This document shows, one piece after another, positions 567-4,210 of a DNA stretch of 4,210 nt (positions are counted from its first letter, which is position 1; every line of letters starts with the position of its first letter). The DNA comes from a virus (lineage: Duplodnaviria > Heunggongvirae > Uroviricota > Caudoviricetes), in IMG/VR virus record IMGVR_UViG_2657245091_000011, one strand, 5' to 3'. Under the pieces are notes generated by a model, which was not told the origin of the DNA, did not search any database, and saw only the letters and a program-made list of their open reading frames with translations. The translations under genes and the position numbers were made by a program.

Positions 567-799
567 AACCCCCCCCCATTTTCACAATCAGTAATCAGGA
601 TGGTTTTAGCCTCATTCAGTGCCATATCAGCACTAAATTGCATAACAGCCAGTGAGTGAGGAACGAAAGCCCCGGGATATTCTGTTTCGCTGGTGGCGTG
701 CTTATGTGCCCTGTCCGCGATAACAGAAATATCAATCAGCGCGTGCATCAGCGTTTTGATGGCTTCGGCGGCTGCGTCCGGTGTGGTTTTATTGTGCAT
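539..799 (-). CDS. hypothetical small protein (86 aa from ATG 799; the track's longer form starts at GTG 841)
   Basis: Within track ORF 539..841; internal ATG at 799..797 has AGGGGG 6 nt upstream, so preferred as the start; E. coli-like codon choice (CTG, GCG, GAA, ACC); C-terminal GGG codons are the G9 tract. Confidence 0.5.
   Translation of the reverse strand: MHNKTTPDAAAEAIKTLMHALIDISVIADRAHKHATSETEYPGAFVPHSLAVMQFSADMALNEAKTILITDCENGGGLCVMIVLIP
569..577. repeat. C9 (plus) / G9 (minus) homopolymer tract at the junction of two ORFs
   Basis: Nine consecutive C at 569-577, read directly from the sequence. Confidence 0.95.
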
Positions 800-989
800 A
801 GGTTTCCCCCTGGCGAATACGGGCGGCAAATACAGCAACACAACCGGACGGGCAAAGGTTACGCGCTTCGCGTTCCGTCCAGGCGGTTACGTGGATGATT
901 TGAGATTCTCCGGCACTCAGTGCCAGAAAACGCCACACAAAGGCAGTTTGTGTGTGCGCCAGACGTGGGGTATGCTGTGTTCCAGCCAT
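789..989 (-). CDS. hypothetical small protein (66 aa), first gene of the minus-strand operon
   Basis: ATG at 989..987 with AGGAG 8 nt upstream; same frame as the 3' end of the 318-aa track ORF; its stop lies 8 nt downstream of the next ORF's ATG (coupled). Confidence 0.4.
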   Translation of the reverse strand: MAGTQHTPRLAHTQTAFVWRFLALSAGESQIIHVTAWTEREARNLCPSGCVAVFAARIRQGETYAQ

Positions 990-1019
990 AATCGTTACTC
1001 CTGTTAACGGTTTGGTTAG

Positions 1020-1053
1020 ACGCCCCGCTACTGCCGCAAACAGTTCGGGGCGT
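1020..1053 (-). promoter_or_regulatory. GC-rich hairpin in the putative 5' leader of the minus-strand operon
   Basis: ACGCCCCG (1020-1027) pairs with CGGGGCGT (1046-1053) around an 18-nt loop; sits between the putative promoter (~1087-1115) and the first ORF; no U-tract follows on the minus strand. Confidence 0.3.
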
Positions 1054-1086
1054 TGTCGTTTACATCCTCTTACTGAGGTGTGATTT

Positions 1087-1115
1087 AAATTAAATTCAAC
1101 TGAATCACAGGTCAA
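1087..1115 (-). promoter_or_regulatory. putative sigma70-type promoter for the minus-strand small-ORF operon
   Basis: On the minus strand, -35 TTGACC (plus 1110-1115), 17-bp spacer, -10 TAATTT (plus 1087-1092); hexamers identified by eye only. Confidence 0.3.
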
Positions 1116-1156
1116 GTGTTTTTTGTGATTCTTTTTTGTGTATACTGAATCACATC
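1097..1156. promoter_or_regulatory. operator-like triple repeat between divergent promoters
   Basis: ACTGAATCACA at 1099-1109 and 1144-1154 (11/11 identical), with an inverted copy TGTGATTC at 1124-1131; centres about 22-23 bp apart; the third copy overlaps the TATACT -10 (1141-1146) upstream of the RHH gene. Confidence 0.5.
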
Positions 1157-1176: not shown

Positions 1177-1482
1177 ATGGCAAAAAACACTATCAACGAC
1201 AAATCAAAACAGATTTCAATTCGTATCCCACATGATGCTTTTGATGGCATGGAATCCGTAAAACTGGACGGCGAAAGCAACGCCGGATTCATAGTAACCG
1301 CCATGCGCGGGGAGATCGCCCGCCGCCAGGCAGAAGGAAGCAGTGAAAATCCTCTGATTTCTTCTCTCGATGCATTGGCGCAAGTGGAAAAAATTGGTAT
1401 TAAAGCTACGGAAGAACTCGGGCAACTTATCGCCATCGCACGCGAAGAACTCCAGCGCCGCAAGGCCAAAGAAGCGGAATAG
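1177..1482 (+). CDS. small DNA-binding protein, probably ribbon-helix-helix (CopG/Arc-like) transcriptional regulator (101 aa)
   Basis: AGGAGA 6 nt upstream of ATG 1177 (the track's GTG 1138 start is less likely); N-terminal KQISIRIPHDAFDGMESVKL...IVTAMRGEIARR fits a strand-helix-helix pattern by eye; intrinsic terminator immediately downstream. Confidence 0.6.
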   Translation: MAKNTINDKSKQISIRIPHDAFDGMESVKLDGESNAGFIVTAMRGEIARRQAEGSSENPLISSLDALAQVEKIGIKATEELGQLIAIAREELQRRKAKEAE

Positions 1483-1513: not shown

Positions 1514-1541
1514 GGCCACCGTGACAGGTGGCCTTTTCTTT
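1514..1541 (+). terminator. rho-independent terminator of the RHH gene
   Basis: GGCCACC / GGTGGCC 7-bp perfect stem, 6-nt loop, followed by TTTTCTTT. Confidence 0.7.
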
Positions 1542-1557: not shown

Positions 1558-1588
1558 TTGTGGCGCTTCTTCACACAGTTGATATAAT
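1558..1588 (+). promoter_or_regulatory. extended -10 promoter (TGaTATAAT)
   Basis: TG at 1580-1581 and consensus TATAAT at 1583-1588; weak -35-like TTGTGG at 1558-1563; no protein-coding ORF downstream on this strand. Confidence 0.45.
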
Positions 1589-1594
1589 TCCCCT

Positions 1595-1667
1595 GCACTG
1601 ATCCAATTTTTCGCAGCAGGTTAATTGTTCGCAAGGGCGCTCTGGTAACGGGGCGCTTTTTGTTTTT
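1595..1667 (+). ncRNA. candidate small RNA (~70 nt) between the extended -10 promoter and an intrinsic terminator
   Basis: Promoter about 7 nt upstream; no ATG or SD in the interval; ends at a hairpin plus U-tract; possible 5' stem CCTGC (1592-1596) / GCAGG (1616-1620). Prediction only. Confidence 0.3.
1635..1667 (+). terminator. intrinsic terminator-like hairpin with GUAA tetraloop and U-tract
   Basis: GCGC 1637-1640 pairs with GCGC 1653-1656, extended by C:G and G:U pairs; loop GTAA 1645-1648; followed by TTTTTGTTTTT (1657-1667). Confidence 0.45.
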
Positions 1668-1779
1668 ACCCACCAGCACAATAAAAATCTTCATTTTCCA
1701 TTTTTGTAAAATTTCATGCTTTCCGGACGACTGGCCATATGTCATTTTTTAGCAGAAGATTTTGCCTTGCTGGTGGGTA
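1667..1779. repeat. 113-bp imperfect palindrome: 12-bp perfect inverted repeat plus 9-bp inner inverted repeat around an AT-rich 62-bp core
   Basis: TACCCACCAGCA (1667-1678) against TGCTGGTGGGTA (1768-1779); AAAATCTTC (1684-1692) against GAAGATTTT (1755-1763); 21 of about 26 arm positions pair. Confidence 0.6.
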
Positions 1780-2424: not shown

Positions 2425-2449
2425 AAAAAACCCCGCATTGCACGCGGGG
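2425..2449 (-). terminator. rho-independent terminator after the alpA-like gene
   Basis: On the minus strand, CCCCGC / GCGGGG stem (plus 2431-2449) with 7-nt loop followed by six U (plus A-run 2425-2430); 15 nt downstream of the alpA stop. Confidence 0.65.
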
Positions 2450-2463
2450 TATGAAAGATATTA

Positions 2464-4080: not shown

Positions 4081-4210
4081 CTACATCCAAAATGACGCAA
4101 TCCGGGAGTTTCGTGGCGTTCCGGTGATACTGCCGTCCGCCGCCGCCCGTTCACCTTCACGAAGCCAGATCCCCTGGTTATTCAGTTCGCGTTTCTGCTC
4201 AGGGGCAATC
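4081..4210 (-). CDS. 3' end (last 43 codons) of an unidentified gene, probably chromosomal, flanking the element
   Basis: Minus-strand frame open from the window end to TAG at 4083..4081 (...IAPEQKRELNNQGIWLREGERAAADGSITGTPRNSRIASFWM); E. coli-like codon choice; markedly higher GC than the adjacent int region. The plus-strand frame is also open, so strand assignment is not certain. Confidence 0.4.
   Translation of the reverse strand, partial: IAPEQKRELNNQGIWLREGERAAADGSITGTPRNSRIASFWM

Follow-up and report, generated by a model that had tools for sequence, protein, structure and literature searches.

Arc and Mnt, encoded in the immI region of phage P22, are small ribbon-helix-helix (RHH) repressors that act on overlapping divergent promoters through operators built of short repeated sites, and in Mnt the RHH domain is followed by a C-terminal helical oligomerisation domain. 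RHH dimers of the CopG type, such as those of omega from plasmid pSM19035, occupy arrays of short direct or inverted repeats. At the level of whole elements, the phage-inducible islands of Gram-positive cocci are silenced by a master repressor, and the relief of this silencing by a helper protein defines the helper-satellite relationship. For the phage-inducible chromosomal islands (PICIs) of Gram-negative bacteria, published work presents AlpA as the activator or master regulator (PMC10111431, PMC11773190, PMC13612085), and lists YlcI/YnfO genes as accessory (PMC11773190, PMC13612085), under the name 'prophage-associated protein' in the latter source. The Bro zones of helper-embedded PICIs (HE-PICIs) sometimes carry C4/isrK-type RNAs (PMC10111431).

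The DNA considered here (the window, meaning the whole stretch of 4,210 nucleotides that was analysed) is 100% identical to a chromosome segment of E. coli O45:H2 FWSEC0003 (L001). There it belongs to an island of ~10 kb (L001 about 6071-16083) that lies between the two halves of a terminase large-subunit gene in a lambdoid prophage (L001 4940-6070 and 16084-17088, each annotated as partial), and window positions 4084-4210 are the start of one of these halves. The gene order is integrase, AlpA-like HTH gene, Bro-N, a 101-aa gene on the opposite strand, Icd-like, small ORFs, DUF4222, RepA-type helicase, SSB and a prohead protease/capsid fusion. This succession of an integrase and AlpA-like end, a Bro zone, a replication zone and a late zone is the one known from Gram-negative PICIs, and the location within a lambdoid prophage, interrupting one of its late genes, is that of their helper-embedded form (PMC10111431). 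EcCICFT073, EcCIEDL933 and EcCIMP1 as well as HE-PICIs share the int/AlpA-like end, the Bro zone and the replication zone, and HE-PICIs also share insertion in a late gene of the helper (PMC10111431). The window is part of a helper-embedded PICI. While the initial annotation proposed a lysis-lysogeny or immunity switch in a phage, the element is thus a satellite embedded in its helper, and the choice to be made would be between satellite quiescence and replication, instead of between lysis and lysogeny.

The features on which our argument draws lie within and around the intergenic region at 990-1176, and are as follows.

789-989, minus strand: Icd-like gene (NCBIfam NF033153, E=3.3e-18), first in the leftward operon
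1020-1053, minus strand: conserved GC-rich hairpin in the 5' leader of the leftward operon
1079-1086, minus strand: site 1, TGTGATTt on the plus strand with the AATCACA core on the minus strand; left arm of O1
1087-1092, minus strand: -10 of the leftward promoter, TAATTT on the minus strand, with a 17-nt spacer
1099-1109, plus strand: site 2, ACTGAATCACA; right arm of O1
1110-1115, minus strand: -35 of the leftward promoter, TTGACC on the minus strand
1124-1131, minus strand: site 3, TGTGATTC; left arm of O2
1141-1146, plus strand: -10 of the rightward promoter of the 101-aa gene, TATACT
1144-1154, plus strand: site 4, ACTGAATCACA; right arm of O2
1177-1482, plus strand: 101-aa gene of the YlcI/YnfO family, with Shine-Dalgarno AGGAGA at 1165-1170
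1514-1541, plus strand: intrinsic terminator that closes the monocistronic regulator transcript

The initial annotation had reported three phased sites, namely a direct 11-bp pair with an inverted 8-bp copy between its members. We recovered both the pair (ACTGAATCACA at 1099-1109 and 1144-1154, 45 bp apart) and the inverted copy (TGTGATTC at 1124-1131, the reverse complement of GAATCACA), but the count of three overlooked a fourth copy at 1079-1086, which matches the 8-mer at 7/8 positions in a one-mismatch search and shows no change across all five class-A loci (defined below). Consequently, the 7-bp core TGTGATT/AATCACA occurs four times in alternating orientation (1079-1085, 1103-1109, 1124-1130 and 1148-1154), and the four sites pair up into O1 (1079-1109) and O2 (1124-1154), inverted repeats of 31 bp that both read TGTGATT-N17-AATCACA and whose centres lie 45 bp apart. 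The centres of successive cores are separated by 24, 21 and 24 bp, in agreement with the proposed spacing of roughly two helical turns. An AT-rich palindrome said to lie beside the sites does exist (ATTTAAAT), yet it sits at 1083-1090 instead of 1084-1091, inside O1, where it consists of part of site 1 together with the leftward -10 and is not a separate element.

This clustering is non-random: when the window was shuffled 1000 times with its dinucleotide composition preserved, a single shuffle contained four non-overlapping copies of any 7-mer within 80 bp, and 13 contained three copies of an 8-mer. Across the 28-kb locus around the window the paired pattern TGTGATT-N17-AATCACA is found only as O1 and O2 (0 expected). 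A search for further copies, as had been proposed with the original description, yielded one additional exact 8-mer in the same 28 kb, so that the sites do not belong to a dispersed repeat family; a widespread unrelated family, which had been named as the observation that would undo the idea, is not seen in this locus.

The sites, 8-11 bp long and spread over 76 bp, overlie the promoter elements of two divergent genes. A leftward promoter of the form TTGAnn-17/18-TAnnnT is equally placed in 17 of the 19 loci compared below, its -35 starting 61-65 nt before the regulator ATG and its hexamers approaching consensus in several of them; a generic promoter scan reported none in 900-1900, the leftward promoter falling below its threshold. 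Site 2 is flush with the leftward -35, as the idea of an abutting copy implied, with the amendment that it lies inside the 17-bp spacer, of which it occupies the -35-proximal part, and site 1 starts just past the leftward -10 and spans the predicted start site. To the right, the promoter of the 101-aa gene has a good -10 but no recognisable -35, and site 3 stands where a -35 would be. Site 4 covers the last 3 nt of TATACT, which bears out the predicted overlap with the rightward -10, and extends over the predicted start site. This -10 is invariant within class A, and TATACT, TATATT, TATTGT or TATAGT near -36 is the top-scoring rightward candidate in 6 of the 19 loci (L015, L020, L013, L010, L006 and L021), although in the window itself another pair outscored TATACT. 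The 101-aa ORF and its Shine-Dalgarno sequence are where they had been placed.

The leftward operon (Icd-like, small ORFs, DUF4222, RepA-type helicase and SSB) is presumably the one that the sites control. That an Icd-like gene opens it recalls icd in the immI region of P1 (c4-icd-ant), and the conserved hairpin in its leader is a further likeness to P1 and to the CI RNA of P4. This hairpin shows compensatory changes at five of nine pairs (15 loci) and is followed by the near-invariant TCTAACCA (window 1010-1019); it lacks both an Rfam match and a T-run in the transcribed strand. Unlike P1 and P4, however, the window contains no match to a C4/isrK RNA even at permissive thresholds (E<=1 for the whole stretch, and E<=10 for 960-1100 and 1540-1700), and control appears to be protein-operator based. 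An RNA-immunity reading of the region was set aside as unsupported, with no significant Rfam family under laxer filters over 960-1100 and 1540-1700.

The 101-aa protein scores 65.7 bits with the YlcI/YnfO N-terminal family of NCBIfam (NF041551), for which the curated cut-off is 30 (E=2.8e-18, residues 9-50), and the RefSeq gene name agrees with this assignment. It comprises an RHH-like N-terminal domain (~9-54), a linker and a long C-terminal helix (59-100). In an AlphaFold2 model (26 sequences, mean pLDDT 78), which represents a monomer of an obligate oligomer, residues 11-18 are extended and are followed by helices at 19-28 and 35-54, a low-confidence linker and the helix at 59-100; the first three elements reproduce the strand-helix-helix arrangement of ~45 residues that characterises the RHH (MetJ/Arc) fold. 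The modelled fold is RHH-like with a long C-terminal helix added. The best structural matches include the RHH antitoxins TacA, MazE4 and Rv0298, and no RHH protein appears among the PDB sequence-profile matches. Pfam PSK_trans_fac is matched below its cut-off (E=0.019 with the window protein; the lowest value from 26 relatives is 0.0011). With hhalign, Arc is aligned at E=0.0042 and a probability of 8% and Mnt at E=0.17, alignments too weak to establish homology to either; in the weak match to Arc, Q12/S14/R16 fall on the base-contacting residues Q9/N11/R13. R16 is invariant, positions 11-15 define the class to which a protein belongs, and every operator class keeps the outer GTG/CAC bases, which the invariant arginine could read.

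No HTH or Stl-type family was detected in the protein with Pfam, NCBIfam or PHROGs. We also considered and rejected a helix-hairpin-helix (HhH) motif, as residues 46-86 match the HhH domain of the Hef nuclease at only E=0.013 and AlphaFold2 shows one continuous helix there. The region of this weak match holds an invariant motif, L..L..vE.IG.ka.eei (residues 58-90, nt 1348-1446). A tblastn search with the protein found no match in 50,697 phage records, and returned only the gene itself from the 28 kb of island and helper prophage, thereby offering no support for a helper-encoded paralogue that would serve as a decoy.

Relatives of the protein occur throughout Enterobacterales. The family is small, since 1.8 billion proteins clustered at 50% identity contain 33 representatives of it, and DNA similarity to this locus finds it in 892 of 5426 complete E. 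coli genomes. We compared 19 loci, the prototype island EcCICFT073 included, from about a dozen enterobacterial genera (Escherichia, Serratia, Yersinia, Klebsiella, Enterobacter, Erwinia, Photorhabdus, Pantoea, Lelliottia, Raoultella and Dryocola among those sampled). A protein-alignment scan of genome contigs yielded seven loci, and exact-protein look-ups and E. coli records supplied further ones. The regulator gene is divergent from an Icd-like gene in all 19. Repeated sites lie near -98, -74, -53 and -29 from its ATG in most of them, with weak or degenerate positions in a few (site 3 in three loci with short forms of the protein, and site 4 in L011). Class A, to which the window belongs, carries the strand K/R-Q-I-S-I-R-I-P; across four genera its four cores, -35 and -10 are invariant or nearly so, the leftward -35 varying at one or two positions, and the spacers and flanks diverge between loci.

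Outside class A all four sites change in concert, and they do so together with the N-terminal strand of the adjacent protein, as the following pairs illustrate.

Strand QLTTVRVP: sites GTGTTTC/GAAACAC
Strand QSLTARIP: sites GTGTAAG/CTTACAC
Strand Q[LI]KN[IV]R[IV]P: sites GTGTGTAT or GTGTGCAT
Strand QQLNARFP: sites GGTATTCA
QMTT loci: sites GTGAnnTAC

By Mantel tests, loci with similar sites (compared as 6-mers) also tend to agree in the strand decapeptide (r=0.60, p=2e-4) and in residues 1-24 (r=0.54, p=2e-4), whereas no correlation is seen with identity in residues 25-50 (r=0.10, p=0.11) or in the Icd-like protein on the other side (r=-0.12). Individual loci illustrate the exchange. In L013 the Icd-like protein is 98% identical to that of the window and the C-terminal half of the regulator 83% identical, and yet both the N-terminus, which is of class B (residues 1-24 MATTNKNAKSQLTTVRVPHDVMEG), and the operators (GTGTTTC/GAAACAC) are different. 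Conversely, L015 and L016 share the N-terminus and operators of the window, whereas their Icd-like and AlpA proteins are 23-35% identical to its own (L015 provides no Icd-like value). Near-identical AlpA proteins (L015, L016, L021 and L009) occur alongside operators of three classes, and the AlpA of the window is only 23-25% identical to those of other class-A loci. The co-variation is subject to a caveat of linkage, because the operators adjoin the N-terminal codons. However, recognition by the N-terminus is favoured in that four dispersed copies change jointly, the association ends sharply at about residue 24, and there is no correlation on the other side. The co-variation of the repeated sites with the strand residues is indirect evidence that a dimer may insert its paired strands into the major groove of these sites. 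In the QMTT class the strand residues alone do not set the inner site bases. The earlier proposal that the sites are operators of the adjacent RHH autoregulator and of the divergent operon is supported by the constant positions of the sites and of both promoter elements, and by this co-variation, over 19 loci.

Several further observations concern the form of the sites and of the protein. Site orientation differs between classes while the positions hold (as in the upstream regions of L003, L005, L006, L009, L018 and L021): it alternates in class A, runs as two direct and then two inverted copies in class D / Q-x-K-N, and is + + - + in two QMTT loci. Short forms of the protein (59-63 aa), which do not have the C-terminal helix, occur in EcCICFT073 (L023 10474-10653), L007 and L008, and in these three loci the third site is degenerate or displaced whereas sites 1, 2 and 4 remain; though the sample is small, this is what would be expected if the C-terminal helix bridges paired sites. 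EcCICFT073 itself has the layout of the window, with its short 59-aa gene, an Icd-like gene and repeated GTGTGGCCCAC sites. Downstream of the regulator, four loci have an extra same-strand ORF of 57-69 aa (L009 6576-6776, L011 3591-3800, L018 1864-2067 and L012 4000-4173), of which that in L012 has a weak Arc-family match (E=0.0079) and the other three match nothing; the window has no such ORF.

Taken with the promoter layout, these computational comparisons make it probable that the 101-aa protein binds the four-site operator as an autoregulated repressor of the Icd-like/replication operon, with specificity cassettes that can be swapped. We infer physical binding, and repression instead of activation, from the positions of the sites, and the architecture would be that of a dimer of dimers. 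One RHH dimer would occupy each site, its N-terminal beta-strand reading the bases through the residues aligned to Arc Q9/N11/R13 (Q12/S14/R16), and the long C-terminal helix would join pairs of dimers 21-24 bp apart, much as in Mnt. With O1 (sites 1 and 2) occupied, RNA polymerase would be excluded from the leftward promoter and the Icd-like/replication operon would stay off, and with O2 (sites 3 and 4) occupied, synthesis of the protein itself would be limited, resulting in negative autoregulation. The operators and the first ~24 codons would behave as a single exchangeable cassette, of which enterobacterial islands may hold at least six operator/protein classes. By their position, the neighbouring Bro-N/AntA-type genes are candidates for relieving the block.

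A potential alternative is that the protein binds the sites mainly as an antitoxin-type autoregulator, or as an activator, and does not repress the replication operon. The antitoxins TacA, MazE4 and Rv0298 among its structural matches point in this direction, as do the rightward promoter, which could need an activator given that it has no -35, and the same-strand ORF of 66-69 aa that follows the gene in some relatives. We nevertheless consider this unlikely: the window gene forms a monocistronic unit that ends at a terminator and has no partner gene after it, and none of the ORFs downstream in the relatives resembles a toxin family of Pfam. O1 sits on the leftward promoter where repressors typically act, over the spacer and start site, and the gene is paired with an Icd-like-led operon in all loci. 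A different protein might also bind the sites, the 101-aa protein then being incidental. AlpA is the experimentally established regulator of Gram-negative PICIs (PMC6092414), and the PHROG families matched by the Icd-like and Bro-N proteins are labelled 'transcriptional repressor' and 'anti-repressor', respectively. However, the sites track neither the identity of the Icd-like protein (Mantel r=-0.12, and the 98% identity in L013) nor AlpA, of which near-identical copies accompany three operator classes, and many loci that bear the sites have either no Bro-N/AntA gene or another gene in its place, making recognition by any of the three decidedly improbable.

The repeats flank ATTTAAATTAAATT in a manner reminiscent of iterons beside the AT-rich core of a replication origin, and the neighbouring operon encodes a RepA-type helicase and an SSB. 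Against such an origin, the AT-rich core is a positionally conserved -10, the sites overlie the promoter elements of two divergent genes and co-vary with the RHH N-terminus, and the type of helicase or primase (RepA helicase, DUF927, primase) varies without the sites changing to match. Moreover, the functional ori of EcCICFT073 was cloned on a rep-ori segment that includes rep (PMC6092414), and the region of that island that corresponds to ours lies ~1.4 kb upstream of the primase gene. We regard iterons as very improbable for these reasons, and give still less credence to a chance assembly or a functionless leftover of local duplication. Two exact 11-mers 45 bp apart are indeed what a recent duplication would leave, yet the cluster is reached in 1 of 1000 shuffles, the class-A sites are invariant or nearly so over four genera in which the spacers have diverged, and other classes bear other repeats at the same four positions. 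Repression by the 101-aa protein is the reading that we retain.

As regards AlpA, a strong intrinsic terminator at 2430-2450 (minus strand) lies between the AlpA-like and Bro-N genes and a weaker bidirectional hairpin at 1856-1879 follows Bro-N, such that the AlpA-like gene looks transcriptionally insulated from the genes downstream. We had considered AlpA-driven read-through, antisense over the regulator gene and into the operon, and the minus-strand terminators at 2450-2430 and 1879-1856 argue against a simple version of it. To the right of the regulator there is a candidate small RNA of ~70 nt (1580-1668, plus strand), with a perfect extended -10 (TGATATAAT, 1580-1588) and, ~45 nt further on, a strong intrinsic terminator (1633-1660 plus T-run). 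This stretch is 83-95% conserved in unannotated DNA of 305 E. coli genomes, its fold is mostly terminator, and it has no Rfam match; pairing of the candidate (1592-1670) with the leftward leader was discarded, the duplex energy being no better than that of 14% of shuffles. A run of nine C at 569-577 (nine G in the coding sense) lies between the overlapping minus-strand ORFs 539-799 and 333-566 (86 and 77 aa). Relatives have a single gene here, L013 with seven G and a fused protein of 150 aa, and PHROG 2512 covers both halves. The split may be due to a frameshift, to a slippery tract or to an error of sequencing.

Set against the systems introduced at the outset, the type of device is classical, that is, a small RHH autoregulator on divergent promoters as in Arc/Mnt, CopG and omega. 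The likeness to Arc and Mnt lies in a small RHH-like protein, divergent promoters and repeated short sites. It does not extend to sequence, in which neither Arc (probability 8%) nor Mnt (E=0.17) is significantly related, nor to the spacing, since the island has four sites 21-24 bp apart over 76 bp whereas the P22 sites are about 11 bp apart, nor to the controlled genes, as the island is a satellite whose operon opens with Icd-like and replication genes and that of P22 with antirepressor. With omega and CopG the island shares repeats of differing orientation, alternating in class A as opposed to two direct and two inverted in class D, but the heptads of omega are contiguous and the island sites are about two helical turns apart, which would imply either bridging through the C-terminal helix or independent binding.

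The counterpart at the level of the island is Stl/Rpr of SaPI, which is divergent from the excision/replication/packaging operon in the same relative place (PMC6092414). The 101-aa gene is likewise transcribed divergently from the main island operon, but its product matches no HTH or Stl-type family in Pfam, NCBIfam or PHROGs and its fold is RHH-like, whereas Stl proteins are larger HTH repressors that are relieved by a helper-phage protein. It may work like Stl without being a member of that group. More tentatively, the YlcI/YnfO protein might be the missing master repressor of enterobacterial PICIs in general (EcCICFT073, capsid-forming and helper-embedded), a broader proposal that we hold possible but somewhat doubtful. 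Under it, the protein would hold the Icd-like/replication operon off through the four-site operator, a cassette of ~170 bp (operators and first ~24 codons) would create at least six 'immunity' classes that do not cross-react, several islands would coexist in one cell without cross-repression, and signals from the helper phage and AlpA would have to overcome the repressor, for instance via the adjacent Bro-N/AntA-type 'antirepressor' genes.

The new part appears to be the assignment of the YlcI/YnfO gene and its operators in PICIs. In the literature searched, which left subscription journals largely uncovered so that a description may have been missed, we found no functional study of the YlcI/YnfO family and no described role for it or for these operators, and a full-text search for PICI together with ribbon-helix-helix returned nothing relevant. 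The analysis yields a candidate repressor, complete with operator coordinates, a conserved target promoter, natural swaps of specificity and a corresponding module in EcCICFT073, and with it a first functional hypothesis for the uncharacterised YlcI/YnfO family. If the specificity classes are real, they would provide orthogonal repressor/operator pairs for engineering, and would explain how multiple islands coexist.
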